Source: an uncultured Gammaproteobacteria bacterium
GTDB lineage: Bacteria; Patescibacteriota; Microgenomatia; Levybacterales; GWA1-39-11
NCBI GenBank assembly: GCA_964504535.1
Contig: CAZDED010000001.1
Coordinates: forward strand, 101,804 to 165,803
Direction: 5' to 3'
Length of the DNA: 64,000 nucleotides
In this document: positions 16,646 through 40,618 of the stretch, piece by piece
Numbering within the stretch: the first letter of the stretch is position 1
Layout: the number at the start of each line of letters is the position of its first letter
The notes under the pieces: model-generated
What the model saw: only the letters and a program-made list of their open reading frames with translations
Told to the model about the DNA's origin: nothing
Database searches by the model: none
Made by a program: the position numbers and the translations under genes

Positions 16646-16738
16646 ATTTTTGCATTTCATGGCGGCGCCGTTTCAGAGGCCGAGATGACGCTTGCGCTAA
16701 ACTTGACACACTCACCTCTTTTTTACTATCATGGATAT

Positions 16739-17470
16739 ATGCGAAAAAGACTGCTCGTTATATTTTCTGTCTTAATTTTCGGAATTTCTCCATCCCTTGC
16801 TTTTGCTGAAGATTCTGCAACTACAAATACTATCACCTCTGATACTACCGTTACTGCTACCCCTACCACGACAAAAGAAAAACATAACGAAACATCAAAG
16901 GTCCGCCCTACTATCGCCTCCGCCATGAAAGATGCAAAAACTGAAATGCACGACAAGAAGGAAGAGGTAAGAACAGAATTTAAAACGAAACTGGCAGAAA
17001 TCAAAGACGCTAAGAAGCAATCTATAGTCACAAATATTGATGCCAGAATCAATACAATCAATAAGAACCGGACTGATGAAATGTCTAAAAGACTAGAAAG
17101 ACTTACTACTATTCTTACAAAAATATCTACAAAAGAGGCTACTCTTTCTTCCGAAGGAAAAAACACCACGACGTTGAAAAACGATATCACAGCAGCAACT
17201 ACTGCAATCAATGCAGCAATTACTGCAGTTAGTGATCAGGCTGCAAAAGACTATGTCGTAACACTAACAACTGATACTGCACTTAAAACCAACGTCTCAA
17301 CAGTAATAAAGCAATTCATGTCTGATATGAAGGCTGTGTATGCTAAAGTTGTCGCTGCCCAGTCAGCAGTACGTAAGGCTCATACGGATCTTGCAAAACT
17401 TATGGGTGTCACTCCATCCCCTACAACAACTACACCAACAGTGACGGCAACAACTACACCAACGCCATAA
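16739..17470 (+). CDS. Secreted Thr-rich coiled-coil protein of unknown function.
   Basis: A signal peptide (MRKRLLVIFSVLIFGISPSLAFA) is followed by Thr-rich segments and a charged helical core, with a TPTVTATTTPTP tail. I chose the internal Met start because the upstream 18 codons have no features and a TTGACA / TATCAT promoter-like pair sits at 16703-16732. Confidence 0.45.
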   Translation: MRKRLLVIFSVLIFGISPSLAFAEDSATTNTITSDTTVTATPTTTKEKHNETSKVRPTIASAMKDAKTEMHDKKEEVRTEFKTKLAEIKDAKKQSIVTNIDARINTINKNRTDEMSKRLERLTTILTKISTKEATLSSEGKNTTTLKNDITAATTAINAAITAVSDQAAKDYVVTLTTDTALKTNVSTVIKQFMSDMKAVYAKVVAAQSAVRKAHTDLAKLMGVTPSPTTTTPTVTATTTPTP

Positions 17471-17481
17471 CAATCTAAAAT

Positions 17482-17946
17482 ATGGAAAATAAAGACCAAA
17501 CAACACCAACAACACAAATCCCACCAACACCGGTTCAACCGGAAGCTACAACGCCAGCAACACCTCCTCCAACGACGGGCGCTCCTTCCGCAAGTCAGAC
17601 TACTGTACCTCCTACTCCCGTCCCACCAACACCTCCACCTGTTGCAGCAACAGCTCCTGTTGTTGCACCACCTTCTTCTGGAAAGAAAAATAACGGACTT
17701 CTTGTCGTGGCATTTATCCTTGTTACATTAATCATTATTCTAGGAGCACTTTATTACATCATCATGAAGCAATCCTCATCTCAACAGCAAGTTTCGCCAA
17801 CTCCTGTTCAAAAGATTGTCGTCACCCCAACAACGCCACCGGTAACTCCAACCATTACACCAACTGATGAGGATATACTAACTACTCCAGTCCCCAATCC
17901 TGAGGAGGACACCACCCAGCTTAATACAGAAATCCAAGGACTTTAA
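17482..17946 (+). CDS. Pro/Thr-rich single-pass membrane protein.
   Basis: It contains PTP/PPT low-complexity segments flanking one TM helix (LLVVAFILVTLIIILGALYYIIM). Confidence 0.4.
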   Translation: MENKDQTTPTTQIPPTPVQPEATTPATPPPTTGAPSASQTTVPPTPVPPTPPPVAATAPVVAPPSSGKKNNGLLVVAFILVTLIIILGALYYIIMKQSSSQQQVSPTPVQKIVVTPTTPPVTPTITPTDEDILTTPVPNPEEDTTQLNTEIQGL

Positions 17947-17947
17947 T

Positions 17948-18280
17948 TTACGAAAGACTTGAAAGAAGAGAAGAAACGAGAGAGACTACTATGCTAAAAA
18001 GTATGGCTGTCAAAATTCCACTCACATAAAATCCGGGTACGACTGATCCAACAAGCAGAACAAGAAGTCCATTTAAGATCAATAAGAACACTCCAAGTGT
18101 CAAAATCGTTAGCGGGATAGTCAAAATCACTAGAACCGGTTTTAGGAATGTATTAACAACACCCAAAACTATAGCTACTACCACAAGCGTTGTTATAGAG
18201 TCTATTGTTACACCCGGGATGAGAAATGCAGCCACAAATACCGAGATTGTCAGGATGATGAGTCGAAGTATCAAATTCAT
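17948..18280 (-). CDS. DUF360 / phage-holin-family 4-TM membrane protein (YvlD-like).
   Basis: The 110-aa product has four hydrophobic helices and matches the DUF360 pattern (AAFLIPGVTIDS...VLGVVNTFLKPVLVILTIPLTILTLGVFLLILNGLLVLLVGSVVPGF). Confidence 0.6.
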   Translation of the reverse strand: MNLILRLIILTISVFVAAFLIPGVTIDSITTLVVVAIVLGVVNTFLKPVLVILTIPLTILTLGVFLLILNGLLVLLVGSVVPGFYVSGILTAILFSIVVSLVSSLLSSLS

Positions 18281-18315
18281 TCTTTTATTATATCCCTATG
18301 CATAGATTTATCAAC

Positions 18316-19371
18316 TCATGCCGATCTTCTGAGATTGAATTCTAAAAGATTTTTTAGTATTTCTTTTTGATTTTTCTCCCCTTCCAAATTATTAAAAATT
18401 CTCCAGACGTTAACCATGATATTTTCGATATCCTGATCCAATAGTTCTACGATTTTATACTTAGAAATTAAATTCCGGATACTACTCATTTGTAGCATGG
18501 TAAGATCTGCATTTCCAAAAGCCTCATTGAGCATTTTTCTTTCATCACTATCAACTTTTTCATAAAGAAGAGAACGTATGAGTGTTTTTTTGTTCTCCCT
18601 GATATCTGACCCCACCGGTTTCCCAATAACATTTTCGTCACCTAAAATTCCGATGACATCATCTTTCATTTGAAATATCGTCCCGATATATTCACCCAGT
18701 TCTTCAAATTCATTTTTTATAGACTCCTGTTTTTCAGAAATAATACAAGCCAAAACAAACGGGAGCGAAAAAGTATATCTCGCAGTTTTATATTTATAGA
18801 CAGAATATATTTCATCGATTGCCGCTTCTTCAGGGGTCTGACCAAACTCTGAGTCAATTCCTTCAGCTAAGGCAACAGTTTTAATCTCTTTGGATAAGTA
18901 TGCTATTAGTTTGCCAACAGATTGTGATTCAACCCCTGAGATCAACTCCATCGCCAAATAAAAGGAAACGTCTGCAACCATCATTGCTATTGAAATTCCA
19001 TAATGCTTTGCTTCTGTGGCACCGAGACTTTTGCCTTTATCTTCATAGCTTGCAAATATTGTTTTTCCGCCACGTCTCATGTAATCATTGTCGATGATGT
19101 CGTCCTGAATCAAAAGGGATGAATGTATGAGTTCAATAGCACAAGCAACTTGTATGTGATCTTTTGTAATTTTTTGACCCAATAGTTCGACAGTCAATAA
19201 GAATAACGTTCCGCGGATCAGTTTTCCTTTAAATACAAATTCCTCTAATGAATCGATGATTCCTTGCTTCTGAAGAGAATCTGGTATTTCCTCTTTTTGT
19301 AACTGTAAAAATTGTTTTAAATTTTCTTCGATAAGATTTCTTGAAGAAATCGAATATTCTTGAAATGTCAT
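18316..19371 (-). CDS. Polyprenyl diphosphate synthase (IspA/GGPPS family).
   Basis: The first Asp-rich motif is LLIQDDIIDNDYMRRGG and the second is FQMKDDVIGILGD...GKPVGSDIRENKKT. Confidence 0.85.
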   Translation of the reverse strand: MTFQEYSISSRNLIEENLKQFLQLQKEEIPDSLQKQGIIDSLEEFVFKGKLIRGTLFLLTVELLGQKITKDHIQVACAIELIHSSLLIQDDIIDNDYMRRGGKTIFASYEDKGKSLGATEAKHYGISIAMMVADVSFYLAMELISGVESQSVGKLIAYLSKEIKTVALAEGIDSEFGQTPEEAAIDEIYSVYKYKTARYTFSLPFVLACIISEKQESIKNEFEELGEYIGTIFQMKDDVIGILGDENVIGKPVGSDIRENKKTLIRSLLYEKVDSDERKMLNEAFGNADLTMLQMSSIRNLISKYKIVELLDQDIENIMVNVWRIFNNLEGEKNQKEILKNLLEFNLRRSA

Positions 19372-19432
19372 AGTGGATTTGCTTGAACCATATTATACTT
19401 GAATTTGCAGCTTAAAAATAGTTTTGAGGCAA

Positions 19433-20443
19433 TTATTGTTGTTTTGGAGCAGGTACAATATTTAGAGGCATATTGCTCATAAATCCGGTTAGATTCTGAT
19501 GGGTGGTCTCTACAATCTTATGTAATGCTTCGTTACTATTAAAAGCATTGTGAGGCGTAACAATGACTTTTGGATGTTTTACCAACATGTGATCCTCCAG
19601 AATTGTCATTAACTTATCTTTTTCAAACGAGAGGGAAAGCAGGTCTTTCTCTTCTTCTAACAACGGCTCTTCTTCTAAAACATCAAGCCCTGCAGCTTTT
19701 ACTTTTCCGGCATCCAATGCCTTAAGAAGTGCCATACTGTCAATTAAAGCTCCCCTGGCTGTATTTATAATTACAACCCCATCCTTCATCATATTAAATT
19801 GTTCCTCCCCTATATAATGATGTGTTTCTTTCGTGTAGGGAATGTGTAGTGAAATAATATCTGATTGCTGATACAAAACAGGTAACTCCACGAATTTGCA
19901 TCCCAATTCTTTTTCGAGTGCATAATCTGGGGTTCTTTTGTAAACAATCGCGTTCATTCCAAATCCTCGCGCTATCCGTATTACGTTTGTTCCGATACTT
20001 CCAACTCCTATAACCCCAATTGTTTTTCCTCTCAGTTCAAATCCCGTTAGACCACTTGGCATAAAATTTCCTTCTTTCACCCGCTCAATGGATTCCGGAA
20101 GTCTTCTTGAGATTGCGAGAAGCAAAGCAAACGTATGCTCAGCAACAATGGTTTCGCCATATGTTGGAACATTTGAAATCAAAATGTTACGATTTTTACA
20201 TTCATCGGTATCAATATGATCAAAACCAGTGGACATTGTTGTAATAAATTTAAGATTTGGCATCTTGTCTAAAAGTTCTTTGTTAAATTGAGTATGAATG
20301 AAGGTAATTACTACGTTAAAAGTATCAAGTCCGGGGGTATTCTCATCGAGAGCTCCATCAAAAAAAACGAGTTCATTATCTTTAATTTCGTTTTGGAAAT
20401 ATTCTTTTTCCCAAGGTTCTAAGTCAAAAAAAGCTAACTTCAT
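19433..20443 (-). CDS. D-isomer-specific 2-hydroxyacid dehydrogenase (NAD-dependent, LdhA/SerA-like).
   Basis: It has a Rossmann fold (GKTIGVIGVGSIGTNVIRIARGFGMNAIVY) and a catalytic R/E/H arrangement (NTARGALID...TPHNAFNS). Confidence 0.85.
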   Translation of the reverse strand: MKLAFFDLEPWEKEYFQNEIKDNELVFFDGALDENTPGLDTFNVVITFIHTQFNKELLDKMPNLKFITTMSTGFDHIDTDECKNRNILISNVPTYGETIVAEHTFALLLAISRRLPESIERVKEGNFMPSGLTGFELRGKTIGVIGVGSIGTNVIRIARGFGMNAIVYKRTPDYALEKELGCKFVELPVLYQQSDIISLHIPYTKETHHYIGEEQFNMMKDGVVIINTARGALIDSMALLKALDAGKVKAAGLDVLEEEPLLEEEKDLLSLSFEKDKLMTILEDHMLVKHPKVIVTPHNAFNSNEALHKIVETTHQNLTGFMSNMPLNIVPAPKQQ

Positions 20444-20470
20444 GGCAGTTAATAAAGTATATGGAATTTA

Positions 20471-22819
20471 TCACCTAATAACAAGAGAATTGTTCTCGAC
20501 CGTTATTACCGCAGCCCCACCCTTCTGAAGGGTATTTGATAACAATAATTTTGACAACTGATTTTCGATTGTTTGCTCAATGAACCGTCTTACGTTTCTG
20601 GCACCAAATTCGGTGCTAAAAGAATTTTTAGCAATAAATTCAGTAACATCATCACTATATGTCAAAATGATTTGTTGCTCAGAGATTTTATCTATCGATT
20701 CCTGCAAGAATAACTTAGCAACAGAAACAGCATCTTTTTCTGAAAGCGGTCTAAATACAATTACATCATCAAATCTATTGATAAGCTCCGGTTTGTAGAC
20801 GCCTGATTGCTGAATTCTCTCAATAAGCTCTCTCTTAACATCCTCAACATTCACACCTTCTTTATATTTCTCTCTGATAAATTCGCTTCCGGCATTTGAA
20901 GTTGCAATGATAATGGCATTTTTAAATGAAACAACTCTTCCGAGATGGTCAGTCAGTCTTCCCTCATCCAAAACTTGCAAGAAAAGATCATGTACACCTT
21001 TTGATGCTTTTTCAAATTCATCCAGCAGTATCAATGAGAAGGGGTTATGTAATATTTTGTCGACTATGCCCTCTCCCAATAAGAGGTTAATAGCATCATC
21101 ATTTTGATACTCGCTCATGTCAAGCCGAATCATCGCACTTTCATCTCCGAAATACGATGAAGCAAGCGCTTTGGCTGTTTGTGTTTTTCCAACACCAGTT
21201 GGTCCTAAGAAAAGAAATGAAGCTATTGGTTTTCCTTCATTTTTCATACCACTCCGGACCCTTCTCATGGCATTAGAAATTGCAGAAACAGCTTCATCCT
21301 GGGAAATTACTCTTTTATGGATCATTGCCTCAAGTTCGAGTAGTTTTTCACTTTCTTGCGTGTCAGGCTTATCCAATAATAAATTTGTCTTCTCACCGAC
21401 AAAACTTCTGACTTCTTCTTCTGTAATTTCATTAACGCCATGAGTTTTGCAGTTAGCAATAACATCATCCAATAAGCGAATTGCCCGTCCTGGTAGAGCT
21501 GTTCCGTCGTTTTCGTATGAATCAGACAAACTAGATACCTCTTTCAGGCCGTTATATGAAATCGAAACATGATTTATTTTTTCTAAATCTTTAGATTTTT
21601 CCAGTATCATAAAAAGGGAAGTCTCAGGATCTGGTTCGGCTACCTCCACAACATCAAATAATTCCTTTACTTCTTGTTTTTGATAGATGAAAGTATTGAA
21701 TGCATCCTCGGTGGTACTGCCTATTATCTTGATTCTGCTACTTTTAAGATACTCAACCAATGATCCTGAAATATCCATATTTAGCCCTCCGCCCCCAAAA
21801 ATATTTTCAATATTAGGAATGTAAACAACAACATTCCCCGCATGCGTTAACTCAGAAAATAATTCAACAAAGCGCGCTTCCAGATCTCCTTGATTTTCGA
21901 TTCCAGCAAGAAGACGCTCAGAATAAAACTTAAAGACAATCTTGTTTGAAATATTTTTTGGGAGAACCCCCATATCTGAATCGAGGGCAAATTCTGCTAT
22001 CAATGCTGTCTTACCGACTCCCGCAGGTCCCACCAGAAGAACGTTACTTGAATGATTTTTTGAGAGCGCAGTAATTAATAAATCGTATTCTTTTTCGCGC
22101 CCGATTGGAGTTATAACTGTTTTTGAAAGTATTTCTCTCGTGAAATTGTATGCATATTGCAATAATTGTTGATTCCATCCAAACACAAAAAAGTCAAACG
22201 CACCACTGCCAGTAAATTTTAGATGATGCTGTTTTTTGCGATCAATACCGTACTGTTTTCTGACCCATGAGAGTATAGTTATAATATCTTTTTCATCGAT
22301 GCCTTTTTCAAACAAGGTCTTATTTTGACTATCGAGCAACAATAGATATGCTGCGTATACATCAACTCCATGAATGTATGAGCCCTCAACAGTGTGAACA
22401 AGTGCTGCTGCCTTCTGAAGCACATGTTCTTCAGATATATCTACTTCATTTTTTGCGTAAGAATACTGCAACAACTTATTAAAATATTTAACTTCACCCT
22501 CCCCCAGTAATTCTTTTATAACCTCTGCTACCGTTTTTTTTCTCTCCAAAATTGCACGTGTCTTAAAATCAGCGCATTCGATGACATGAAGAACGTTGTC
22601 TGAGATTTTTTTAGAAGGAATACTATTCTCGAGCTTAAAATGGATAAAGAATTCCTGAAGTATCAAAACGAAATACACCGGCAACAGATGCATAATAAAT
22701 GTCGGGTTCTTGAGATTGAAATAAACAATTACCCCAATTCCAAAAAAAATAAGGACACGTAACCACCGAATGACAGAATTGTCGAAAAAATAATAGAGAA
22801 AATAATAATTGTTTTTCAT
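20471..22819 (-). CDS. Membrane-anchored Hsp100/Clp-family AAA+ ATPase with a degenerate NBD1 Walker B. The likely start is MKNNYY at 22819.
   Basis: It has two N-terminal TM helices (WLRVLIFFGIGVIVYF, FIMHLLPVYFVLILQEFFI), a Clp_N-like region, and NBD1 Walker A LLVGPAGVGKT. NBD1 Walker B reads VVYIPNIENIFGGGG, with IPN in place of I/FDE. NBD2 is intact (FLFLGPTGVGKT, ILLDEFEKA, sensor and arginine-finger region). The first 46 codons of the 828-aa ORF overlap the upstream gene and were discarded. Confidence 0.7.
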   Translation of the reverse strand: MKNNYYFLYYFFDNSVIRWLRVLIFFGIGVIVYFNLKNPTFIMHLLPVYFVLILQEFFIHFKLENSIPSKKISDNVLHVIECADFKTRAILERKKTVAEVIKELLGEGEVKYFNKLLQYSYAKNEVDISEEHVLQKAAALVHTVEGSYIHGVDVYAAYLLLLDSQNKTLFEKGIDEKDIITILSWVRKQYGIDRKKQHHLKFTGSGAFDFFVFGWNQQLLQYAYNFTREILSKTVITPIGREKEYDLLITALSKNHSSNVLLVGPAGVGKTALIAEFALDSDMGVLPKNISNKIVFKFYSERLLAGIENQGDLEARFVELFSELTHAGNVVVYIPNIENIFGGGGLNMDISGSLVEYLKSSRIKIIGSTTEDAFNTFIYQKQEVKELFDVVEVAEPDPETSLFMILEKSKDLEKINHVSISYNGLKEVSSLSDSYENDGTALPGRAIRLLDDVIANCKTHGVNEITEEEVRSFVGEKTNLLLDKPDTQESEKLLELEAMIHKRVISQDEAVSAISNAMRRVRSGMKNEGKPIASFLFLGPTGVGKTQTAKALASSYFGDESAMIRLDMSEYQNDDAINLLLGEGIVDKILHNPFSLILLDEFEKASKGVHDLFLQVLDEGRLTDHLGRVVSFKNAIIIATSNAGSEFIREKYKEGVNVEDVKRELIERIQQSGVYKPELINRFDDVIVFRPLSEKDAVSVAKLFLQESIDKISEQQIILTYSDDVTEFIAKNSFSTEFGARNVRRFIEQTIENQLSKLLLSNTLQKGGAAVITVENNSLVIR

Positions 22820-22821
22820 TG

Positions 22822-23160
22822 TTATGAACTCTTGTAAAAAATAAGGGCTATAAGTGCAACTGGTATCAATATCAAAAAGACTCCAATTAAAAATTCGATA
22901 AGCAAAAGAAAAATAACAACAAGGAGAGACACTGAGATAAGAACGGACTTGATACACATCCCAAAAATAATGGAAAACAAGACCAATCCTTGCCTATATT
23001 CATTCTTAAGAGGTTTGAAGAACGTTTTAATAAGAAGAGGAAGGGACAGTAAAGAAGCTACATACCGGTTCAGATCAATGAAGAAATTAAGCAATCCTCC
23101 GAGAACATCCCTATACCAAAAAGTAATTAAATAAAATGGGTAATAGATAAAGGCAAGCAT
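22822..23160 (-). CDS. Small 3-TM membrane protein of unknown function, immediately upstream of the membrane-anchored Clp paralog (2-nt gap).
   Basis: The 112-aa product has three hydrophobic helices. Its TAA stop at 22822-22824 is followed 2 nt later by the Clp ATG. Confidence 0.35.
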   Translation of the reverse strand: MLAFIYYPFYLITFWYRDVLGGLLNFFIDLNRYVASLLSLPLLIKTFFKPLKNEYRQGLVLFSIIFGMCIKSVLISVSLLVVIFLLLIEFLIGVFLILIPVALIALIFYKSS

Positions 23161-23229
23161 TTATACATTTAGTTTACGGTAAGCTCGAATCATAAATCAA
23201 CAATAGGTCTTGTATGGTTGTTTGAGTCT

Positions 23230-23258
23230 TTGAAAATATTGTATGATTAGCTTATATA
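23230..23258 (+). promoter_or_regulatory. Sigma-70-like promoter upstream of pilB (TTGAAA-17-TATATA).
   Basis: The -35 TTGAAA is at 23230-23235 and the -10 TATATA at 23253-23258, with a 17-nt spacer, about 45 nt upstream of the pilB ATG. Confidence 0.4.
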
Positions 23259-23303
23259 GACTCGAAACCAATCGAGTTATATGTGTTTGTCTAACTGCCC
23301 TAT

Positions 23304-24995
23304 ATGATTCTGTCCGATGATCAAATAAAGGCACTGGTTTTAAAAACCGGCCTTGCTACACAACAAAGCCTTCAAGAGCTCGTCGAGTTCTCAAAAAACT
23401 CCAACGTAACCCTTGCTGATGCTCTCATTGAGAAAGATGTGATTTCAGATGAAAATTTAGGAATTCTGATAGCCGATTTTCTCCATATTCCCTTCATTGT
23501 CCTTTCAAAACTCTCTATTCCTGAAGAAGTCTTTCATGTTGTTCCTGAAAAGATAGCTCGAAAGCAAAAAGTAATACCATTTGAAAAAAATAGTGAAGGA
23601 TTAAAAGTGGCAACGGTTGATCCACGTAACAGTGAGGTTCTTCAAGCAATCAGTAAAAAAACAGGACTAAAAGTGATCCCGTATCTGACTACTGAACGGG
23701 ACGTTGATAATATCTTGCGTATATATAAGAGGGATCTTCAAAAATCCTTTGAACAACTCCTACAAAAAGAGCTTGGCATTTCAGATATCTCAAAAGTAAC
23801 TGATGCTGCTCCAATTGAAAAGATTGTGAATCTTCTGGTAGAGTTTGGATACAGTGACAAAGTTTCTGATATCCATATCGAGCCTGAAGAAAAAGATTCT
23901 CTCGTTCGGTTCAGGATTGATGGTATATTACATGATGTTTTATATCTTCCTAAAAACTTCCATGAAAGAATTATTTCTCGTATCAAAATACTTTCAAAAC
24001 TTCGAACAGATGAGCATCTGAGCCCACAGGATGGAAAGATGCGTATTAAGCTCGATGAAGAAAATCTTGATATCCGCGTGTCTGTACTTCCAATTGCTGA
24101 TGGCGAGAAAGCAGTTCTTAGGCTTCTTGCTTCACACTTCAGGCAATTTTCCCTGATAGATCTTGGTATGAGTGAACCGGATCTGAAGAAAGTAACCAAT
24201 GCTTATAGCAAATCGTATGGCATGGTACTTTCGACCGGACCTACCGGAAGTGGTAAAACTACCTCTATCTACGCTATTTTAAAGATTCTTAACACTCGAG
24301 AAAAAAATATCACAACAATCGAAGACCCTGTTGAATACAGAATTAAAGGGGTCAATCAAATCAATGTAAACCAAAAAACCGACCTTACGTTTGCTAATGG
24401 GTTGCGATCTATTCTACGGCAGGATCCGAATGTTGTTTTTGTGGGAGAAATCCGAGATGGAGAGACGGCTGGCATTGCAGTGAATGCTGCTTTGACTGGT
24501 CATTTAGTTCTCTCGACACTTCACACGAATGATGCAGCAACAGCACTCCCACGACTTATTGATATGAAGGTTGAGCCTTTTCTTGTCGCTTCAACCGTAA
24601 ATGTCATCATTGCACAACGTCTGATAAGAAAGATTTGTGATATGTGCAAAATGTCTTATGACATATTAAGAACTGATCTTGCTAAAAACTTACCACCTAC
24701 CATTATTTCAAAACACTTTGGAGACAGGGAAAATATTAAACTATATAAAGGAAAGGGTTGTAAAATTTGCCACTCGACGGGATATTCGGGTCGACTTGGG
24801 GTATTTGAGGTGTTGGAAGTGACAAAAGACATAAAAGAATTGATTACAGCAAAAAATGATTCTGACATCATTACAAAAAAAGCAGTAGAAGAAGGAATGA
24901 CCACTATGTTAAATGATGGACTGATAAAGGTATCAAAAGGAATTACAACTCTTGAAGAGGTTTTACGAGTAACGAGAGTAGAAACGTCATCATGA
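23304..24995 (+). CDS. pilB: Type IV pilus assembly ATPase (GspE/PilB family).
   Basis: It has an N-terminal T2SE_N domain, Walker A GPTGSGKTTS, Asp and His boxes, and a C-terminal tetracysteine motif (CDMCKMSYD ... CKGKGCKICHSTGYSGR). Confidence 0.9.
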   Translation: MILSDDQIKALVLKTGLATQQSLQELVEFSKNSNVTLADALIEKDVISDENLGILIADFLHIPFIVLSKLSIPEEVFHVVPEKIARKQKVIPFEKNSEGLKVATVDPRNSEVLQAISKKTGLKVIPYLTTERDVDNILRIYKRDLQKSFEQLLQKELGISDISKVTDAAPIEKIVNLLVEFGYSDKVSDIHIEPEEKDSLVRFRIDGILHDVLYLPKNFHERIISRIKILSKLRTDEHLSPQDGKMRIKLDEENLDIRVSVLPIADGEKAVLRLLASHFRQFSLIDLGMSEPDLKKVTNAYSKSYGMVLSTGPTGSGKTTSIYAILKILNTREKNITTIEDPVEYRIKGVNQINVNQKTDLTFANGLRSILRQDPNVVFVGEIRDGETAGIAVNAALTGHLVLSTLHTNDAATALPRLIDMKVEPFLVASTVNVIIAQRLIRKICDMCKMSYDILRTDLAKNLPPTIISKHFGDRENIKLYKGKGCKICHSTGYSGRLGVFEVLEVTKDIKELITAKNDSDIITKKAVEEGMTTMLNDGLIKVSKGITTLEEVLRVTRVETSS

Positions 24996-26065
24996 TGGAA
25001 TTATTTAACAGCAACAATCCAAAGTCATTGAGGATCTCAACAGCTGAGAAACTTGGCTTGATTAGTAATCTCGCAACAATGCTTTCTGCCGGCATCTCAA
25101 TTCTTGAAGTGGTTGACTCACTTCTTGAAGACGCAAAAGGTAACCAAAAAAAACTGCTTGATTCTTTAAAAGCAGATCTTGCTCAAGGAAATCATGTATC
25201 AGATGCGTTGGCAAAATTTCCGAAGATATTTGATAAAATCACGGTCAATCTTATCAAGGCATCCGAGGAAGCAGGAACCCTTGACGTAACACTGGTAGAC
25301 CTAAAATCTTCGATCAAAAAAGACGCAGAATTCATGGACAAAATTAAAGGTGCCTTAACCTATCCGGTTCTTATCCTTTTTGTCTTTGTGGGGGTGCTTG
25401 TTATGATTTTAATTGTTGTTATCCCTAAAATTTCCAGTGTTTTCCTTCGACTCAACGTTGACCTACCACTTCCAACACAAATACTCATCGGGATGTCGCA
25501 GGTCTTAACACAATACACGATATTTGTCTTTCTCGGGCTAGCAGTCATAGGAATTGGTGGTTTTCTTTTCTATCGGGAGAAAAAAAGAACATTTCTGCAC
25601 TTTCTTTTCATGCTCCCGCTTGTATCTACCCTCTCTCAGCAGATAGATCTAACACGGTTCTCAAGGAGTCTATATTTATTACTGAATGCCGGAATTCCTA
25701 TTGCTGCTGCTCTTGAGCTTGCCCAGGAAGTTGTTCTTAAAAAAGAAGTCAGTGACGCGATTGGTCACTGTAAAGATGTTGTTTTGGCGGGTAGTGAGTT
25801 GTCAGACGGCCTGAAAAATGCAAAAAATATTTTTCCAAATATCATGATAAAAATCACCGAAGCTGGGGAAAAAAGCGGATCGTTGGATAAATCGATGCAG
25901 GATGTTTCCGAATACCTAGACTACCAAGTTGAAAACACATTAAAGACACTAACAACACTTCTTGAACCTCTCATGCTTATTTTTGTAGGAGTACTTGTGG
26001 GTGGAATGATGCTTTCAATAATAGCACCTATATACGGACTGATTGGACAAGTAAGTTCTCACTAG
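24992..26065 (+). CDS. pilC: Type IV pilus platform protein (GspF/PilC family).
   Basis: It has two GspF-like repeats with 3 TM helices and overlaps pilB by 4 nt (ATGA). Confidence 0.85.
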   Translation: MMELFNSNNPKSLRISTAEKLGLISNLATMLSAGISILEVVDSLLEDAKGNQKKLLDSLKADLAQGNHVSDALAKFPKIFDKITVNLIKASEEAGTLDVTLVDLKSSIKKDAEFMDKIKGALTYPVLILFVFVGVLVMILIVVIPKISSVFLRLNVDLPLPTQILIGMSQVLTQYTIFVFLGLAVIGIGGFLFYREKKRTFLHFLFMLPLVSTLSQQIDLTRFSRSLYLLLNAGIPIAAALELAQEVVLKKEVSDAIGHCKDVVLAGSELSDGLKNAKNIFPNIMIKITEAGEKSGSLDKSMQDVSEYLDYQVENTLKTLTTLLEPLMLIFVGVLVGGMMLSIIAPIYGLIGQVSSH

Positions 26066-26156
26066 CATGCATCATCTAATAGAAAATAGACAGAAGGCAA
26101 TAGACAGAAGTACTGGAAACAAAAAAAATAATCTAATGTCTAATGTCTTTTTTCTA

Positions 26157-26636
26157 ATGTCTTCTAACCGTGGCCTGACATTAATAGAGCTGCTTCTTGT
26201 TATAGGAATTCTTTCTATTCTTTTTGCGATAGGCATCGTTAGTCTTACCAATATCAGAGTTATTTCCGGTAACAATAGTGCAAGTGTTGTCCTAATTTCT
26301 GACCTCAAAACTCAACAAATAAAGGCAATGACCGGAGATACTGAAGGGCGTGGGGTTCCTGATAATTATGGTGTCAAAATCCTATCAAATAGATATATTC
26401 TGTTTCATGGAATTACATATAACCCACTAGACACATCAAATTTTTCAGTACCGGTAGACAATGGATATATACTGAGTACAACATTCCCCAACAGTACAAT
26501 ACTCTTTGCGTCAGAAAGTGGTCAGTTGGTCGGATTTGTTCCTAACCAAAATACAATCGCTCTAACAAGCACACCGTCTGGGCAAGTCAAAACCATCCAA
26601 TTCAATGCTTATGGAACAGTTACAAATATTAATTAA
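26157..26636 (+). CDS. Prepilin-type pseudopilin / minor pilin (GspH/FimT-like).
   Basis: It has a class III signal (MSSNRG|LTLIELLLVIGILSILFAIGIV). The ORF-track start at 26067 adds 30 residues that do not look like a leader. Confidence 0.65.
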   Translation: MSSNRGLTLIELLLVIGILSILFAIGIVSLTNIRVISGNNSASVVLISDLKTQQIKAMTGDTEGRGVPDNYGVKILSNRYILFHGITYNPLDTSNFSVPVDNGYILSTTFPNSTILFASESGQLVGFVPNQNTIALTSTPSGQVKTIQFNAYGTVTNIN

Positions 26637-29586
26637 CAGTATTAAGAATCGACAGGAAGGACAACTTCTGATTGAGATTATCCTTGCTATCGCGATAACG
26701 GCAATCATGCTCCCCGCGCTTTTGACCGGACTTTTTTCATCAAAACAAGGAAAGGCGCAACAAGGGCAAAGGGTTCAAGCTGTTGCTCTTATGAAAGAGG
26801 CAGAGGAAGTAGTAAGAAATGTTCGAGAACAGGGGTGGACACTTTTCTCTGTCAATGGTACGTATCATCCGTTAATTTCGGGGACTACGTGGTCGTTTGC
26901 ATCCGGAAGTGAAAACGTTAATGGATTGACAAGAACAATAACGGTAAGCGATGTGTATCGGGATAGTAATGGGGTAGTTGTAACAAGCGGAGGAAGCCTA
27001 GATCCATCAACGAAAAAAGTTTACATACAAATAACATGGGGACAACCGTATGCTTCTTCGGTTGATTCTACTATTTATGTAACCCGATATTTGCAAAATA
27101 ATGCGTCAACCCAAACAAGTATCGCGGATTTTAATGCCGGCACAACTATCGATACTGCCGTTACCAATACGTCAGGAGGAGAGATAACGCTTGCACCAAA
27201 TACAAAAGGTAAATGGTGTTCTCCGAGTTTTTCAAGTGCAACCATTACTCTTCCCGATGGACCCCCTGTTGCAGTTGCGGCAACAGCAAGCGCTTCCTCA
27301 ATATCCACGCCAAACGATGTCTTTGTGGCAACCTCACCGACAACTACGAACACCTACAAGCTCGCCCATATAAAAGTGCCAGCAGATATTGATCCTCCGG
27401 TTCCTACACTTCGTGGCACTTTCACCCTTAACGCAGCAAGTTATAGTAACGCATCCCTTGTTCCAGTCAGCCCAGGGATTGATAACAGCTTCATCACAAA
27501 TGCTGTTAAATACTACAAATCATCTAGCGGTAAATTGTATGCGCTTCTTGCAACAACCAAACCTGATCGTGAAGTCATAGCAATACTTGTTGACGATGGA
27601 ATTACCGGCAACGATAACACAAATAATGGAGAGTATCAGGATTATATAAATAAGATCTATAAATATTGGACTTTTTTCGACACAAAGATTTACGGAACAG
27701 CTTCGGGACTTGATACTGGATTTTTGAGTCCGACCGCAAATGCCGCAGACACTGGTGGGGATGGAAATGGTTTTGAATCAAACCCAACTAGGGCGTATTC
27801 GTCTAACTCTTCGTATGCTACTGACTCCAATAGTGGCAATGGCAATGGGACAAACTGCACGGGATCTGATAAAGACAAACATAGGTTCTATAATTACGGG
27901 ATCTCTTTGCCATCCGGCGGGACTATTGATGGAATAGAAATACGACTGGATGGTAGAGCTGACAGTACTACCGGAAGTCCTAAATTTTGCGTACAACTAT
28001 CATGGGACGGTGGCACAACCTGGACAAGTGCAAAATCTTCAAACAATTTAACTACTAATAATGCAACATATACGCTTGGTGGATCGTCAGATACCTGGGG
28101 AAGAACCTGGACGGATAGCGATATGAATGATACAAATTTCCGAGTACGGATAATTGATGTCTCAAGCTCTACCCGTACGTTTTCCCTTGATTGGATTGCA
28201 ACAAAAGTATATTTCAGTGGGGGCACCCTCACGACATCTGATCAAGCACCCTATGGAGCGGGGGCATCATCCATAGCGGTTCTTGACGACAGAGGATATG
28301 TTACCTCTGGTGGATTCTTATATGCCTTTGACCTGAGCAATATCGACAATAAAAGTCAAAGCAGTGGCCTTGATATGATTGGGTGCAGAATAGAACTTGA
28401 CGGTGATGACTGTAACGCCTCAACAAGCAGAATTAGAAAATATGCTGCAGGAAATACTGGCACTAATTGGGGAAGTGAATCTGCAGGACAAACCGCTTGT
28501 GTTGACGGTGGAAATACGCAAATTTATGCAGAAAATGACATCTATCCGGTCAGAGTTGGTAACAATATATATGTGTATGCAGCGGTTGGCGCAGGAACTG
28601 ATCCAGAGCTTGATATAGCAAATGTAAGCACCCCTCCAACGGGGGCTTCGAGTCCTTCGATTACAGCAAGTACTTGTGGAACAATAGCAAGCGGAAATGC
28701 TTCATGGAAAAGAGGAGGATCTTTGGATTTCAATTCAGCGAGCAACACGCAAGAAACTGCTAACTCGGTGTTTGCCAGCCCTGATGGGACACGTGCATAT
28801 ATCTCATCCAACGGTACAGTGGACGCCAATAGTGATGGGATTCCGGACAGTTGGCAGTTTTATATAATAAATACAACTTCAAAAACAGCTCCTGCTTTTC
28901 TCTCAGGAACTCCCGCAACCGGAGCCACAAGCGGATACTATTATGGATCGGGTGCTAATGCAGAATTATATCCAAGAAGATCACTTACCGTATTTAATGG
29001 CTCTCGTGCGATTGTTGTCGGGAAAGATGGACTGACAAATGGCAATAATGCTGCCGAATATCAAGTGGTAAATATTACGAATGAGTCTTCACCTTCTTTC
29101 TGTGGAAGTCTTGATTTCAACCAAGGGTTTAGTGATTTAGCATCAGTAACTGAAGCTGATAATGATAAATTTGCTTATCTTGTTTCAAATACCGGGGTGA
29201 ACGAGCTAAAGATTATTCAGGGAGGACCGGATGGAACATATCTTGACACCGGAACATATGAATCTAGTCCTCTCGATCTTGGGGCGAGCGTACAGCTAAA
29301 TAGGCTTACTTCAAATGCCACAGTCTCTGCCAGTACAACACTGCAGTATAGAGTTGCAGCCACAATACCGGTAAATGGTTCGTGTGCAAATGCAACCTAC
29401 ACATACGTAGGACCCGATGGGACAGCAGGAACATTCTTTCCTGCAACCGGAGGAGCTATTCCATTGAGTGGTATTACAGGTTTTCAAAATCCAGCACAAT
29501 GCGTGAGATACAAGGCGTATCTTTCAACAACAGATTTTAACGTAACGCCAACTCTTTTAGATGCTTCAATCAATTATTCACCATGA
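26605..29586 (+). CDS. Giant (993 aa) modular pilin: a prepilin-type N-terminus fused to large Asn/Thr/Gly-rich beta-rich domains. It is a putative pilus-tip adhesin.
   Basis: The N-terminus is MEQLQILINSIKNRQEG|QLLIEIILAIAITAIMLPALLTGL (G-1, E+5 and a hydrophobic helix). About 930 residues follow with no further TM, containing many G/T/S/N beta-strand-like segments and several Cys. The gene overlaps the neighbouring pilin genes at both ends. Confidence 0.6.
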   Translation: MLMEQLQILINSIKNRQEGQLLIEIILAIAITAIMLPALLTGLFSSKQGKAQQGQRVQAVALMKEAEEVVRNVREQGWTLFSVNGTYHPLISGTTWSFASGSENVNGLTRTITVSDVYRDSNGVVVTSGGSLDPSTKKVYIQITWGQPYASSVDSTIYVTRYLQNNASTQTSIADFNAGTTIDTAVTNTSGGEITLAPNTKGKWCSPSFSSATITLPDGPPVAVAATASASSISTPNDVFVATSPTTTNTYKLAHIKVPADIDPPVPTLRGTFTLNAASYSNASLVPVSPGIDNSFITNAVKYYKSSSGKLYALLATTKPDREVIAILVDDGITGNDNTNNGEYQDYINKIYKYWTFFDTKIYGTASGLDTGFLSPTANAADTGGDGNGFESNPTRAYSSNSSYATDSNSGNGNGTNCTGSDKDKHRFYNYGISLPSGGTIDGIEIRLDGRADSTTGSPKFCVQLSWDGGTTWTSAKSSNNLTTNNATYTLGGSSDTWGRTWTDSDMNDTNFRVRIIDVSSSTRTFSLDWIATKVYFSGGTLTTSDQAPYGAGASSIAVLDDRGYVTSGGFLYAFDLSNIDNKSQSSGLDMIGCRIELDGDDCNASTSRIRKYAAGNTGTNWGSESAGQTACVDGGNTQIYAENDIYPVRVGNNIYVYAAVGAGTDPELDIANVSTPPTGASSPSITASTCGTIASGNASWKRGGSLDFNSASNTQETANSVFASPDGTRAYISSNGTVDANSDGIPDSWQFYIINTTSKTAPAFLSGTPATGATSGYYYGSGANAELYPRRSLTVFNGSRAIVVGKDGLTNGNNAAEYQVVNITNESSPSFCGSLDFNQGFSDLASVTEADNDKFAYLVSNTGVNELKIIQGGPDGTYLDTGTYESSPLDLGASVQLNRLTSNATVSASTTLQYRVAATIPVNGSCANATYTYVGPDGTAGTFFPATGGAIPLSGITGFQNPAQCVRYKAYLSTTDFNVTPTLLDASINYSP

Positions 29587-30155
29587 TTTTTTTTAAACAA
29601 AAAATAATAGTTATTAGTCAAAAGTTATTAGTTATTAAAAAAAAACTACCAGCTACTAACTACCAGCTACTAACTTCTAAACGTGGGTTCACTCTCGTCG
29701 AACTCCTTATTTACATGGGGCTTCTAACAGTTTTGATTCTAATATTTACTGACATATTCACTTCAATAATTGATAATCAATTAAGCTCAAGAAACACATC
29801 AAATGTTGCTGATGATGGACGCTATATTTACTCACGATTCATCTATGATGTAGGGCGGGCACAAGCAATTACACAGCCTTCAACCTATGGCAGTTCTTCT
29901 GCAGTACTTGATCTTACAATCGGTGGACAAAACTATAGTTACTCTCTTCTAAATAATAATCTTGTTGTGACAAGCCCGGCAGGGGCATATGCCCTTAATG
30001 GGTATGGGTCATCAATATCGGGATTACTATTCACCAAGGTAGGGACAACAAGCGCAAAAAGCACTGTTCAGATTAATTTCACAGTAAAGGGGGTCGTGAC
30101 AAGCAGGGGAATAAAAGATCAACAGATATTCCAAACTACAGCCGGACTACGATGA
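29583..30155 (+). CDS. Prepilin-type minor pilin (PilW/GspJ-like).
   Basis: KRG|FTLVELLIYMGLLTVLILIF is a pilin N-terminus with E+5. From the only in-frame ATG the leader is unusually long (35 aa). Confidence 0.6.
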   Translation: MIFFKQKIIVISQKLLVIKKKLPATNYQLLTSKRGFTLVELLIYMGLLTVLILIFTDIFTSIIDNQLSSRNTSNVADDGRYIYSRFIYDVGRAQAITQPSTYGSSSAVLDLTIGGQNYSYSLLNNNLVVTSPAGAYALNGYGSSISGLLFTKVGTTSAKSTVQINFTVKGVVTSRGIKDQQIFQTTAGLR

Positions 30156-30535
30156 AAATATCACCTACAAATCAACAAGGACAAACACTAATTATTCTTC
30201 TCATTTATATGGTTATTGCTATTATCGTAACAACCGCTTCAATTGCCCTTGTAATCAATAGCTCTCGAGGTACAGATAAATTATACCAAGGCGCAAATTC
30301 TTTAGATATTGCAGAAAGTGGAGCCGAAACTGCTATGATTAAATTATTAAGAGATCCCAACTACATTGGCGAGACAGTGACAGTCGGAAATGGACAAGCG
30401 GTAATAACGGTAAATGGCACCAATCCTAAAATAGTAGTCTCAAAAGGAACTCTTAATAACTTTACGAGAACAATTCAAGTGATTGTTGATACAAGTAATA
30501 ATGTGTTAACAGCTACATCCTGGAAAGAAATCTGA
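30152..30535 (+). CDS. PilX/GspK-like minor pilin that lacks Glu+5.
   Basis: After QQGQ|TLIILLIYMVIAIIVTTASIAL comes ANSLDIAESGAETAM, which matches the QA..AEAG.E.A motif of PilX-type pseudopilins. Confidence 0.5.
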   Translation: MKISPTNQQGQTLIILLIYMVIAIIVTTASIALVINSSRGTDKLYQGANSLDIAESGAETAMIKLLRDPNYIGETVTVGNGQAVITVNGTNPKIVVSKGTLNNFTRTIQVIVDTSNNVLTATSWKEI

Positions 30536-30536
30536 T

Positions 30537-31229
30537 ATGGAAAATGTAAAAAAACTACCAGCAATACTATATTTAGATAAAAATGGATTTTACTTTTATG
30601 AGGAGGGGTTTCCTAGTGTTGTAAGTCTTGCGTTCCTTGCTACATCCGTAAAAGATATGGATGTAATAAATGGCGCTTCGATTATGACTCAGGTTAAGTC
30701 ATTTATTGACCAATATAAAATACCCCCAGCGATAATAAATATCATTGTTTCACCAAATATCACATTTGAGAAGGACTTTGTAGACCTTACATCAGAGGCT
30801 TTGGAGGAAAAAACAAAAAATTTTGTTGATACGATCCCTTTCGAAAGTGTCATGAGCAAAAGGTACCCAATTGATAAAGGTGTCAAGGGCATCGGATGGA
30901 ATGAAGAACTCTATTTAGAATTAAAGATGAGTTTTGAAAAAAATTCTTTTATAGTTGACCAGGTGATACCATACCAACTTCTGGGCTCTGACCAGACCCT
31001 CATCCAGAATTTTACCCAAGAAAATGCAGCACAACTACTAAGACGAATGGATCATCTTAAGCAATTTACCATGCTAACTGTTTTAAAAGAAAAACCACAA
31101 GTAACTCAAAATGCTGATGATAAAAAGTCATCAAAACCAAAACAGAGCAAAACCAGACTGTATGTCATGGGTGGAATATTTGTGATTCTTTTCATTATTC
31201 TTGGATACATGCTTCTCAATCAAAAATAG
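30537..31229 (+). CDS. Hypothetical protein with a C-terminal TM anchor inside the pilus operon.
   Basis: The 230-aa product has a single C-terminal TM (LYVMGGIFVILFIILGYMLL) and no recognisable pilin N-terminus or ATPase motif. Confidence 0.35.
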   Translation: MENVKKLPAILYLDKNGFYFYEEGFPSVVSLAFLATSVKDMDVINGASIMTQVKSFIDQYKIPPAIINIIVSPNITFEKDFVDLTSEALEEKTKNFVDTIPFESVMSKRYPIDKGVKGIGWNEELYLELKMSFEKNSFIVDQVIPYQLLGSDQTLIQNFTQENAAQLLRRMDHLKQFTMLTVLKEKPQVTQNADDKKSSKPKQSKTRLYVMGGIFVILFIILGYMLLNQK

Positions 31230-31880: not shown

Positions 31881-32753
31881 TTAGAACCAGTGCTTCTTTT
31901 TTGATTCACGGTCAAACTCTTCAAGAAGTTCCTTTTGTTTTGATGAGAGTTTTGTTGGGATTTCAATTTCAACTCTTACATAATGATCTCCATGTTGCGA
32001 ACTATTTACATGCTTTACGCCTTTACCTTTTATTCTAATAAGAGTTCCTGGCTGAGTCCCTTGCGGAATCTTGAGTTTAACTTTTCCAACTACTGTCTCT
32101 ACCTCTTTGATACTCCCGACAGCAGCCTCCACCATCGTTAACTTGAGATCGGAAACGATATCGTATCCTTCTCTATGAAATTTACTATTTGAAGAAACTG
32201 AAATCACAATATCAAAATCTGAAAACTGTATTCTTGATCCATCATTGACTCCCGCAGGAACCTTTATGTCTTTCCTTGTCCCGTCTAATGAAACGGATTT
32301 TGTTGTTCCTTTAACTGCCTCCATAAAATCGATTCTGAGTGAGTACGAAGGTTTTCTTCTTCCGAAAGGTGTCCCTCCCCCCCCACCAAAAAATTGCTCA
32401 AAAATGTCGAAGGGGTCTGAAAAACCACCAAAATCCTGTGCGCCACCATTTGTTGAATATGAATAAGTAAATGGACCCTGTTGGCCGCCAAACCCTCCAA
32501 ATGGTCCCCCAGCACCCGATCCACGGCCACCATTTTCAAATGAAGCACTCCCGAATTGATCATATTGCTTTCTTTTTTGATCATTACCCAATATCTCGTA
32601 TGCTTGGTTTATTTCCTTAAATTTCTCTTCTGCTTCTTTTGACTTATTTTTGTCAGGATGATACTGCACCGCAAGTTTTCTATAAGCGCTTTTTAGCTCT
32701 GCAGCAGTTGCAGTCTTACTGACACCCAAAACTTTATAAAGATCATTACTCAT
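31881..32753 (-). CDS. dnaJ: DnaJ-family co-chaperone of type B, with a J domain and a G/F region but no zinc-finger domain.
   Basis: The J domain is [32 protein letters not shown] Gly/Phe-rich region ([21 protein letters not shown]) follows, and C-terminal beta-sandwich domains. There are no CxxCxGxG repeats. Confidence 0.8.
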
Positions 32754-32800
32754 ATGTTGTATTTTAGCAGTTTATAGCCTCAATTGCCAGATTCAACTTA

Positions 32801-35074: not shown

Positions 35075-35598
35075 TGTTTTTTAATTGACACCTGGGCAGT
35101 TGAATCGGTAGAGTTTTCCAGAGTTACTTCCAACCCATACTCAATGATTTTATCAGTACATTTCCCGGCAATACCCCCACAGGAATAACTTAAAATTTTT
35201 CTTATATCATCTTTTACTAAAGCGATGTCGGTTGTTGCAATACAGTCAAAACATTTCGAATCGGGTAATATTGCTCCTACATATTCTATAGTCACGCTCG
35301 TTGTAGGGACAGTGACGACCTTTCCTTTTATAAGGCTCATTTTAATCGGGGCAGTAGAGGAAGATATTGTGGGAACCGGGGTAATTACTGGAGCTTTCAC
35401 GCCCGGAGTAACCGTTGGAACCACATTGGAGTTATTGCTGTAGATAAAAAATGATCCAAAAATTATAACAAGCGTAATACATACTATGATCGCAATAAGA
35501 ATTATTTTTTTTGTATTTTTTTGACTTGTAGGACTGATCATAGCATTTTGATCAACAACAATGGGAGATTGTGATTGATCAAGTATATTATTTTCCAT
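35071..35598 (-). CDS. Small membrane-anchored extracytoplasmic Cys-containing protein, translationally coupled (ATGA overlap) to the M4 protease gene.
   Basis: It has a TM (KIILIAIIVCITLVIIFGSFFIY), a PT-rich linker and a ~90-aa domain with four Cys (CFDC ... SCGGIAGKC). Confidence 0.4.
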   Translation of the reverse strand: MENNILDQSQSPIVVDQNAMISPTSQKNTKKIILIAIIVCITLVIIFGSFFIYSNNSNVVPTVTPGVKAPVITPVPTISSSTAPIKMSLIKGKVVTVPTTSVTIEYVGAILPDSKCFDCIATTDIALVKDDIRKILSYSCGGIAGKCTDKIIEYGLEVTLENSTDSTAQVSIKKQ

Positions 35599-35609
35599 AC
35601 AAAACTTAT

Positions 35610-40617: not shown

Positions 40618-40618
40618 A

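Follow-up and report, generated by a model that had tools for sequence, protein, structure and literature searches.

Clp/Hsp100 ATPases are textbook threading machines. Aromatic pore loops are required for threading in ClpB, Hsp104, ClpA and ClpX as well as in FtsH and Msp1. Type II AAA+ unfoldases with a single active ring are well established, and where one of the two rings is inactive (D2 of NSF, D1 of Pex1/Pex6) the dead ring acts as a structural or assembly tier. Torsin, which is related to Clp/Hsp100, has no aromatic pore loops, associates with membranes and is controlled by transmembrane (TM) cofactors (PMC5425593). Here, we analyse a 64,000-nucleotide stretch of DNA (the window) from an assembly named after an uncultured Gammaproteobacteria bacterium and placed by GTDB among the Levybacterales of the Patescibacteriota (GCA_964504535.1, contig CAZDED010000001.1, positions 101,804 to 165,803 of the forward strand). 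At positions 20,471 to 23,160 the window carries a gene for a Clp/Hsp100-like ATPase with a predicted membrane anchor, preceded directly by a gene for a small membrane protein.

Judged from sequence, the ATPase represents a distinct and conserved membrane-anchored Clp/Hsp100 subfamily in which the first AAA+ module (D1) is catalytically dead and under selection, the second (D2) is complete, and aromatic pore loops, M-domain and ClpP-binding loop are all absent. A preliminary description of the locus had treated the gene as an isolated oddity. Instead, it belongs to a large unnamed module found across the Patescibacteria: a search of 5.8 billion proteins returned around 95 full-length Levybacterial orthologs (780-800 amino acids (aa), 35-89% identity), the named ones being from Candidatus Levybacteria. 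The Patescibacteria are a huge, mostly uncultivated radiation in which few lineage-specific systems have been characterised, and the module is widespread there.

The gene pair and its start codons

The two genes lie on the minus strand:

20471..22819, minus strand: gene of the Clp/Hsp100-like ATPase with a TM anchor, 782 aa plus stop, identified by Pfam domains, matches in the PDB, an AlphaFold2 (AF2) model and the orthologs
22822..23160, minus strand: small membrane partner gene, 112 aa, with a directly upstream homolog in 35 of 35 loci

The long open reading frame (ORF) listed for the ATPase spans 20471-22957 on the minus strand and would encode 828 aa from a GTG at 22957, while translation from the ATG at 22819 gives 782 aa beginning with MKNNYY. 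Since every ortholog begins at the latter position, we place the start at ATG 22819. The GTG start was rejected: its first 46 codons would overlap the small gene, which is read in a different frame, by 136 nt, and none of the orthologs reaches so far. The small ORF has the C-terminus IFYKSS followed by a TAA stop, and the sequence then reads CA and the ATG of the ATPase. The preliminary description had reported that a 112-aa ORF stops 2 nt before the ATPase start, and the TAA-CA-ATG sequence bears this out.

Public gene calls at the identical locus omit the 112-aa ORF and its exact sequence is missing from a collection of 15 billion proteins, so the small gene is unannotated in this genome. 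Small membrane genes are overlooked systematically in these public calls. The current NCBI labels are 'ATP-dependent Clp protease ATP-binding subunit' for the ATPase and 'hypothetical protein' for the small protein. We also note a 110-aa gene with a PF04020 holin-like product (17948-18280, minus strand) that is likewise uncalled at the identical locus (loci L001/L002).

D1 has lost its catalytic motifs and remains conserved

Motif states were read from a 33-sequence alignment and from a 118-sequence motif table that covers the family and canonical Clp proteins. Alignments to ClpC and to these 118 sequences place the D1 features as follows:

21434..22114, minus strand: D1 pseudo-ATPase module, residues 236-462
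22007-22030, minus strand: D1 Walker A GPAGVGKT, intact
21878-21907, minus strand: D1 pore-loop position, AGIENQGDLE
21785-21832, minus strand: degenerate D1 Walker B and conserved NIENIFGGGG
21653-21673, minus strand: D1 Arg-finger position, EVKELFD

In the HMMER alignment to Bacillus subtilis ClpC, GNVVVYIPNIENIFGGGG falls on ClpC GNIILFIDELHTLIGAGG, such that ILFIDE becomes VVYIPN and the Asp-Glu pair of the Walker B motif is swapped for Pro-Asn. A replaced Walker B beside an intact Walker A in D1 had been proposed in the preliminary description, and the alignment agrees with it on both counts. The fold of D1 is retained, as is, in this ATPase, the P-loop. The D1 pore-loop Tyr is lost as well, with KYRG changed to ENQG in the ClpC and family alignments, and so is the Arg-finger pair (ERRFQ to KELFD; RRF to ELF).

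Across 87 orthologs, the large subdomain of D1 has a mean pairwise identity of 53% compared to 60% for D2. At least 95% of them keep K270, and a new invariant motif, NIENIFGGGGxxxD, has appeared after the former Walker B strand. This conservation argues that D1 is under selection and not decaying.

The M-domain is absent. Residues 457 and 463 of the ATPase map to ClpC 402 and 469, respectively, which leaves ClpC 403-468 unmatched, and the ClpA hidden Markov model (HMM) aligns in a single stretch; accordingly, no segment is inserted in the D1 small domain. The ClpB HMM aligns to the ATPase in two separate stretches only.

D2 is catalytically complete and lacks its pore loop

The features of D2 are:

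20474..21433, minus strand: D2, the sole catalytically complete module, residues 463-782
21182-21205, minus strand: Walker A GPTGVGKT
21062-21085, minus strand: pore-loop deletion site, residues 579-586
21005-21034, minus strand: Walker B LILLDEFEKA
20888-20911, minus strand: sensor-1 (TSN)
20840-20875, minus strand: ClpP-loop position without the tripeptide
20768-20785, minus strand: Arg finger R682 (LINRFD)
20585-20605, minus strand: sensor-2 GAR

The catalytic set of D2 comprises Walker A, Walker B, sensor-1, an invariant Arg finger (R682) and sensor-2. Nothing remains of the pore loop APPGYVGYEEG, and residues 579-586 read LLLG-EGIV. The claim that this second nucleotide-binding domain is canonical therefore stands for its catalytic motifs and fails for its GYVG pore loop. 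The deletion is common to P0002-P0005, which are 82-89% identical and come from other samples, and the identical protein is found in independent assemblies, so it is not an assembly artefact.

A ClpP-docking loop of the form [LIV]G[FL] was sought after sensor-1 of D2 and was not found; REKYKEGVNVED stands there, and the insertion of around 9 aa that bears LGF in ClpC-type sequences is missing in the family alignment. The earlier remark that no ClpP-binding loop is evident is thus supported. Within the 64-kb window, to which the search was confined, tblastn with an approximate E. coli ClpP sequence as query found no clpP.

These states extend to the whole subfamily. In the 118-sequence table, none of the TM-anchored members has the catalytic Glu, the Arg fingers or the pore-loop Tyr of D1 or the GYVG of D2, and all keep the D2 catalytic motifs. 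Their D1 catalytic-Glu site is P, E, Q or D followed by N. All canonical Clp sequences of the same table, which have no predicted TM helix, have every motif. The D2 GYVG loop is deleted in the clade of this ATPase and is shortened and non-aromatic in the other TM-anchored members.

The N-terminus is predicted to form a membrane hairpin

Upstream of D1, we distinguish three features:

22637..22774, minus strand: N-terminal membrane hairpin with TM1 (residues 16-36), TM2 (residues 41-61) and a 4-residue loop, from hydropathy, AF2 helices and family conservation
22220..22630, minus strand: eight-helix N-domain, residues 64-200, with AF2 helices at 79-190; alignment to the NCBIfam ClpA model begins at residue 86
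22175..22210, minus strand: aromatic linker motif GSGAFDFFVFGW, residues 204-215, family-specific, between N-domain and D1

Hydropathy gives hydrophobic helices at residues 16-36 and 41-61 and no others in the ATPase (Kyte-Doolittle, 19-residue mean of at least 1.6), and AF2 helices 15-34 and 39-63 cover the same region (model pLDDT 85, pTM 0.74). The hairpin is kept across 87 orthologs, with R21, E56, F58 and P68 at least 95% conserved. The motif table gives a predicted TM count of 2 for nearly all full-length family members and of 0 for canonical Clp. All these data agree with the two N-terminal TM helices, atypical for Clp, that the preliminary description had predicted. An alternative start that would exclude the helices was looked for and none was found: the orthologs all share ATG 22819, and later Met residues occur only at M43, within TM2, and at M283, within D1, so the helices cannot be removed in this way.

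The N-domain is probably a very diverged Clp_N. Pfam Clp_N gives no match even at E 10, either in the ATPase or in the isolated N-domain, which has no meaningful NCBIfam match up to E 10 either, and a profile comparison (hhalign) of the N-domain with Clp_N is weak (E 4e-4, probability 35%). In the same kind of comparison, the corresponding domain of the wider TM-anchored relatives is a clear Clp_N (98.8%). The linker motif GSGxFDFFxxGW reaches at least 95% conservation at G204, G206, G214 and W215; AF2 confidence is low at residues 199-212.

Membership in Clp/Hsp100 and database status

The ATPase has the two tandem AAA+ modules of class I Clp/Hsp100 proteins, with an AAA_2-type D2 followed by ClpB_D2-small and an AAA_lid_9 lid in D1. 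The Pfam matches are AAA_2 (residues 530-685, E 1.4e-40), ClpB_D2-small (692-769, 2.1e-18) and AAA_lid_9 (400-476, 5e-05); apart from this lid, Pfam matches in D1 are at P-loop level only. The closest solved structures are B. subtilis ClpC (4e-94), Thermus thermophilus ClpB and E. coli ClpA, and the AF2 model aligns to ClpC, ClpB and ClpA protomers with Foldseek TM-scores of 0.8-0.85 (normalised to target length).

No named family takes the protein in. NCBIfam scores are 388.7 bits for ClpB (TIGR03346) against a cut-off of 1232.1, 377 against 993 for ClpA and 307.5 against 884.95 for ClpV (TIGR03345), and ClpG and ClpK are also below their cut-offs. The window holds no type VI secretion genes, and an assignment to ClpV (TssH) does not apply. 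We found no Pfam, NCBIfam or PADLOC family specific to either protein. The literature searched describes neither of them, nor any Clp/Hsp100 with a TM anchor from Patescibacteria, and the study of Méheust et al. 2019 (PMC6744442) names no Clp or AAA family.

The ATPase is paired with a small membrane protein

Scanning genomes for the N-terminal half of the ATPase family yielded 35 loci, all from Levybacteria or Patescibacteria metagenome-assembled genomes (MAGs); the taxonomy of relatives is taken from MAG labels. Many records of loci L003-L036 (CAZ*/CAY*), which are Levybacteria-type at 57-86% identity, are titled 'uncultured Gammaproteobacteria bacterium', a title that looks like a placeholder or wrong.

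In all 35 loci, an ORF of 108-124 aa ends at or overlaps the ATPase start. Of 28 pairs, 22 have overlapping stop and start codons, 17 of them by 4 nt, a signature of translational coupling. Adjacency and overlap both uphold the proposed pairing of the ATPase with a small membrane protein, and we infer from this gene coupling that the two proteins interact.

The small protein has a conserved N-terminal FWY motif, an invariant loop TFFKPLKNEYR (residues 46-56, positions 22993-23025) and a hydrophobic C-terminal segment (residues 58-110, positions 22831-22989). It had been described as a 3-TM protein. Strong hydrophobicity is limited to residues 58-110. AF2 (pLDDT 88.5) gives helices 2-37, 40-47 and 57-111, and the invariant KPLKNEYR loop lies between these helices. 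The 3-TM topology is not established. Residues Y7, Y33, S39, L43, P50, K52, E54, Y55, R56, L59, F62, S63, G67, K71 and P100 are invariant across the loci. Neither the small protein nor its Parcubacteria-type homologs have a meaningful Pfam or NCBIfam match up to E 10, and a Foldseek comparison of the model with the PDB gave nothing below E 4, merely generic long helical hairpins.

When the Levybacterial small protein was used for an exhaustive profile search, only 49 representatives came back, all of them short. The weakest, P0282 and P0284, carry a 'WHY...LLRTLFxPWxR' variant of the motif. In one protein, P0097 (801 aa, L039 5001-7406), a small-protein-like N-terminus is naturally fused to a TM-anchored Clp-like body. 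This fusion comes from a MAG labelled Marinimicrobia and sits beside a Y1 transposase; it may be a rare case outside the Patescibacteria or a binning error.

The pair is a form of a wider Patescibacteria module

The P0282 gene is followed directly by a gene for an 820-aa protein with a TM-rich N-terminus, a D1 Walker B of 'LVIENL' and a D2 loop without GYVG. More distant TM-anchored Clp-like proteins (P0101, P0104 and P0105, around 900-925 aa) are each preceded by a membrane protein of 122-135 aa with the motif FPxWWY...NxFxPM[FY]GQxDWxGRxISFFxR. This family of around 122 aa comprises at least 1575 clusters, and its source-named members are all hypothetical proteins from Patescibacteria or Falkowbacteria. 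An hhalign comparison between the Levybacterial small protein and this family is weak with only 3 sequences (12.5% probability) and reaches 95.7% probability with deeper alignments (E 9.8e-9, 103 columns), so that the two families are homologous.

We also scanned metagenomes from the side of the small protein, which gave 563 relatives, and examined 80 loci. A Clp-like gene is immediately downstream of the small gene in 59 of 63 testable loci and within 4.3 kb in 61 of them. A GT4 gene follows the ATPase in 34/38 loci, and a canonical Clp gene is divergently upstream in 23/47. The downstream GT4 proteins have WecA as their best NCBIfam score, below the cut-off, and are referred to here as WecA-like. 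A YkuD (L,D-transpeptidase) gene often stands behind GT4; three additional loci fit the same order. For example, one locus reads mraZ, rsmH, an ftsL-like gene, the small gene, the Clp-like gene and GT4. No viral relatives of the module were found in 2.9 million viral contigs. On these sequence data, the locus in the window appears as the Levybacterial form of a module, consisting of a small TM protein and a TM-anchored degenerate Clp, that is common to Patescibacteria.

In many Parcubacteria-type loci, the WecA-like GT4 is fused to QueH (epoxyqueuosine reductase, PF02677), which joins a membrane transferase that initiates glycans to a domain of the tRNA-modification type:

L044, 6739-8355: GT4-QueH fusion
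L045, 8104-9705: GT4-QueH fusion
L046, 8085-9617: GT4-QueH fusion
L047, 5703-7280: GT4-QueH fusion

Proposed mechanism and alternatives

Our proposal, to which we give about even credence, is a membrane AAA+ module of two obligate components that acts as a non-threading remodeller or switch, with a dead D1 serving as scaffold and D2 as the only motor. The small protein would be joined by a translationally coupled, two-tier Clp/Hsp100-derived ATPase held at the cytoplasmic membrane face by its N-terminal TM hairpin. D1 would be a non-hydrolysing scaffold for assembly or regulation. As type II AAA+ proteins with one dead ring use that ring as a scaffold, D2 alone could drive the ATPase and would be its only motor. 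The complex would then be an ATP-driven conformational switch or remodeller working on a membrane-embedded partner. The conserved cytosolic motif of the small protein (TFFKPLKNEYR here, PM[FY]GQxDW in the wider family) may be a docking or regulatory element, or the small protein may be the client. Such a design would resemble Torsin with its transmembrane cofactors. Because the function of one ring and the loops of both have been lost, the ATPase probably works unlike its known relatives.

The process served is more speculative and could be the synthesis of polyprenyl-phosphate-linked envelope glycans. This link, held with low confidence, follows from gene association: a WecA-like GT4 lies directly downstream in the wider family, and a prenyl-diphosphate synthase lies two genes downstream here. 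In its most specific form, a 'bacterial Torsin-like' non-threading Hsp100 with a small TM cofactor would switch or remodel a WecA-like GT4 glycan complex through D2 hydrolysis, which we regard as possible and rather doubtful. Nonetheless, the synteny with a WecA-like transferase offers a testable lead into envelope biogenesis in Patescibacteria.

Several points weigh against this proposal. Hexamer formation, ATPase activity and contact with the small protein are what we infer from the sequences, and the TM topology of both proteins comes from hydropathy and AF2 only. Some family members retain an aromatic residue near the D2 loop (e.g. G.Y.ET, GY-LTE), and substrate contacts could still be made by the N-domain or by loops without aromatic residues. 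Since D2 has its own Arg finger, a cofactor need not complete the active site, which departs from the Torsin analogy. The GT4 link is missing at this locus, where the WecA-like GT4 is 26 kb away, and the Levybacterial neighbours (a dehydrogenase and, in around half of the loci, divergent pilus genes) point elsewhere or nowhere.

The alternative that survives best, and one we think unlikely, is a membrane-tethered threading unfoldase, similar to Msp1 or to FtsH without its protease, in which the D2 ring extracts or disaggregates membrane proteins and the small protein is an adaptor or substrate. The TM anchor, the complete D2 site, the D2-small oligomerisation domain and a domain in the position of the Clp-type N-domain all fit such a machine, as does the existence of type II AAA+ unfoldases with a single active ring. 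However, the whole subfamily has lost both pore-loop Tyr residues, this ATPase and P0002-P0005 have lost the D2 loop altogether, and neither an M-domain nor a ClpP loop is present. The loss of the pore loop in a clade that keeps the protein at 82-89% identity suggests that the loop is dispensable for function, and without aromatic pore loops a processive threading unfoldase is unlikely. Threading extraction or disaggregation is thus disfavoured relative to the non-threading remodeller or switch. The preliminary description had suggested a membrane-tethered unfoldase with a single active ring; the tethering and the competence of D2 alone hold up, while extraction and disaggregation do not, given the lost pore-loop Tyr residues and the absent M-domain.

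It is improbable that the ATPase serves the neighbouring type IV pilus machinery as an accessory factor, for example in ATP-dependent assembly or quality control of pilus membrane components. The module is divergently adjacent to pilB here (143 nt), as it is in around 18 of the 35 Levybacterial loci; yet around half of these loci and all examined distant relatives have no adjoining pilus genes, and among close relatives the adjacency follows general synteny. We consider a role in anti-phage defence or as a mobile-element ATPase, like the ClpB homolog DolB of Dodola, more improbable by far. The PADLOC DolB model does match residues 368-646 (E 1.5e-37), but this match reflects generic AAA_2 and lid similarity, no DolA-like neighbour is present, the small protein has no PADLOC match, and the module has stable housekeeping synteny throughout the phylum and no relatives in the viral contigs. 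Finally, a decaying, functionless Clp paralog beside a chance reading frame, as the loss of several catalytic and pore-loop motifs and a small ORF both uncalled publicly and absent as an exact sequence from the protein collection might suggest, appears effectively refuted by the conservation of around 95 full-length orthologs (35-89% identity), of a D1 at 53% with new invariant motifs, and of a small ORF with 15-18 invariant residues in 35/35 loci and hundreds of homologs.

Genes around the pair in the window

The genes of the window that bear on the pair are:

19433..20443, minus strand: D-isomer-specific 2-hydroxyacid dehydrogenase gene, 27 nt downstream of the ATPase (Pfam 2-Hacid_dh; NCBIfam matches generic and below cut-off)
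18316-19371: polyprenyl (short-chain trans-prenyl-diphosphate) synthase gene, two genes downstream of the ATPase
23304-31229: type IV pilus genes (pilB, pilC, pilins), divergent from the module across a 143-nt intergenic region

The Levybacterial order is small gene, ATPase and D-2-hydroxyacid dehydrogenase. The dehydrogenase is directly downstream in 29/35 loci and is missing in only 2 loci with sufficient downstream sequence. In Levybacteria it is the third conserved member of the cluster, with a putative functional tie to the pair. A promoter and terminator scan of 17800-23400 showed no terminator-like site between ATPase and dehydrogenase, with counts at the shuffled expectation and hence uninformative. 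The short-chain trans-prenyl-diphosphate synthase follows in around 10 Levybacterial loci, and a divergent type IV pilus operon is upstream in around 18 of the 35.

The WecA-like GT4 of the window lies at 48665-49780, not directly downstream of the ATPase as in the wider family. It adjoins a UbiA-family prenyltransferase gene (47681-49780 for both, minus strand) and is of the same type as the module-linked GT4 proteins.

The window also holds a canonical ClpB-like gene (35610-38468, minus strand) in an hrcA-grpE-dnaK...dnaJ cluster, and the ATPase is separate from it, as previously stated. This heat-shock cluster (31881-44203, minus strand) contains hrcA, grpE, dnaK, a 735-aa ORF (38494-40701), the clpB-like gene, a 175-aa ORF, an M4 peptidase gene and dnaJ. 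The 735-aa and 175-aa ORFs have no Pfam match, the M4 peptidase is secreted and thermolysin-like, and such genes are unusual inside a chaperone operon. The ClpB-like protein has an Ala/Thr/Pro/Val-rich low-complexity insertion of around 75 aa (QQGDANAKAEAVSTTT...VANQDPHMQKV) in D2 after sensor-1, at the site of the ClpP loop in ClpA/ClpC; it is absent from the other canonical Clp proteins in the alignment.

In the pilus operon, a gene after pilB, pilC and a 189-aa pilin-like gene (26605-29586, plus strand) encodes a 993-aa protein whose hydrophobic N-terminus resembles that of pilins and whose long body is rich in Ser, Thr, Gly and Asn; it may be a giant minor pilin or a tip adhesin. On the other side of the cluster, the products of two adjoining genes (16685-17946, plus strand) are mucin-like, rich in Thr and Pro, and carry a signal or TM segment; public gene calls assign them to no family. 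These genes (hyp_16685) are conserved beside the cluster in many Levybacterial loci.

Comparison with known systems

Unlike the ATPase described here, NSF and Pex1/Pex6 are soluble proteins of the classical AAA clade whose active ring keeps its pore loops. FtsH and Msp1/ATAD1 share with it an N-terminal TM anchor and a ring at the cytoplasmic membrane face, and FtsH also has two TM helices. However, each has only one module, of the classical AAA type, and cannot do without its aromatic pore loops, and FtsH also carries a protease domain; the ATPase has neither such loops nor a protease.

Torsin, with LAP1 and LULL1 in the eukaryotic endoplasmic reticulum and nuclear envelope, is similar in its N-terminal hydrophobic segment, loop loss and TM partner. 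Torsin has a single AAA+ module and receives its Arg finger from the cofactor, while the ATPase has two modules and its own D2 Arg finger, R682. The small partner is not AAA+-like. We draw this comparison as an analogy of design only and claim no evolutionary link.

With ClpB/Hsp104, including the copy at 35610-38468, the ATPase shares the two-tier AAA+ architecture, ClpB_D2-small and independence from ClpP. It differs in lacking the coiled-coil M-domain for DnaK coupling and the pore-loop Tyr residues, in being membrane-anchored and in lying outside the heat-shock cluster.

The closest relatives are ClpA and ClpC. B. subtilis ClpC and E. coli ClpA have the same order of N-domain, D1, D2 and D2-small and identical D2 catalytic motifs; ClpC is the best match in sequence (4e-94) and in structure (Foldseek around 0.85, target-normalised), and ClpA likewise has no long M-domain. 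Compared to both, the ATPase has a TM hairpin, a dead D1, no aromatic pore loops, no ClpP tripeptide and an obligate small partner. With these changes, the subfamily would exemplify an Hsp100 scaffold repurposed for a non-threading job.

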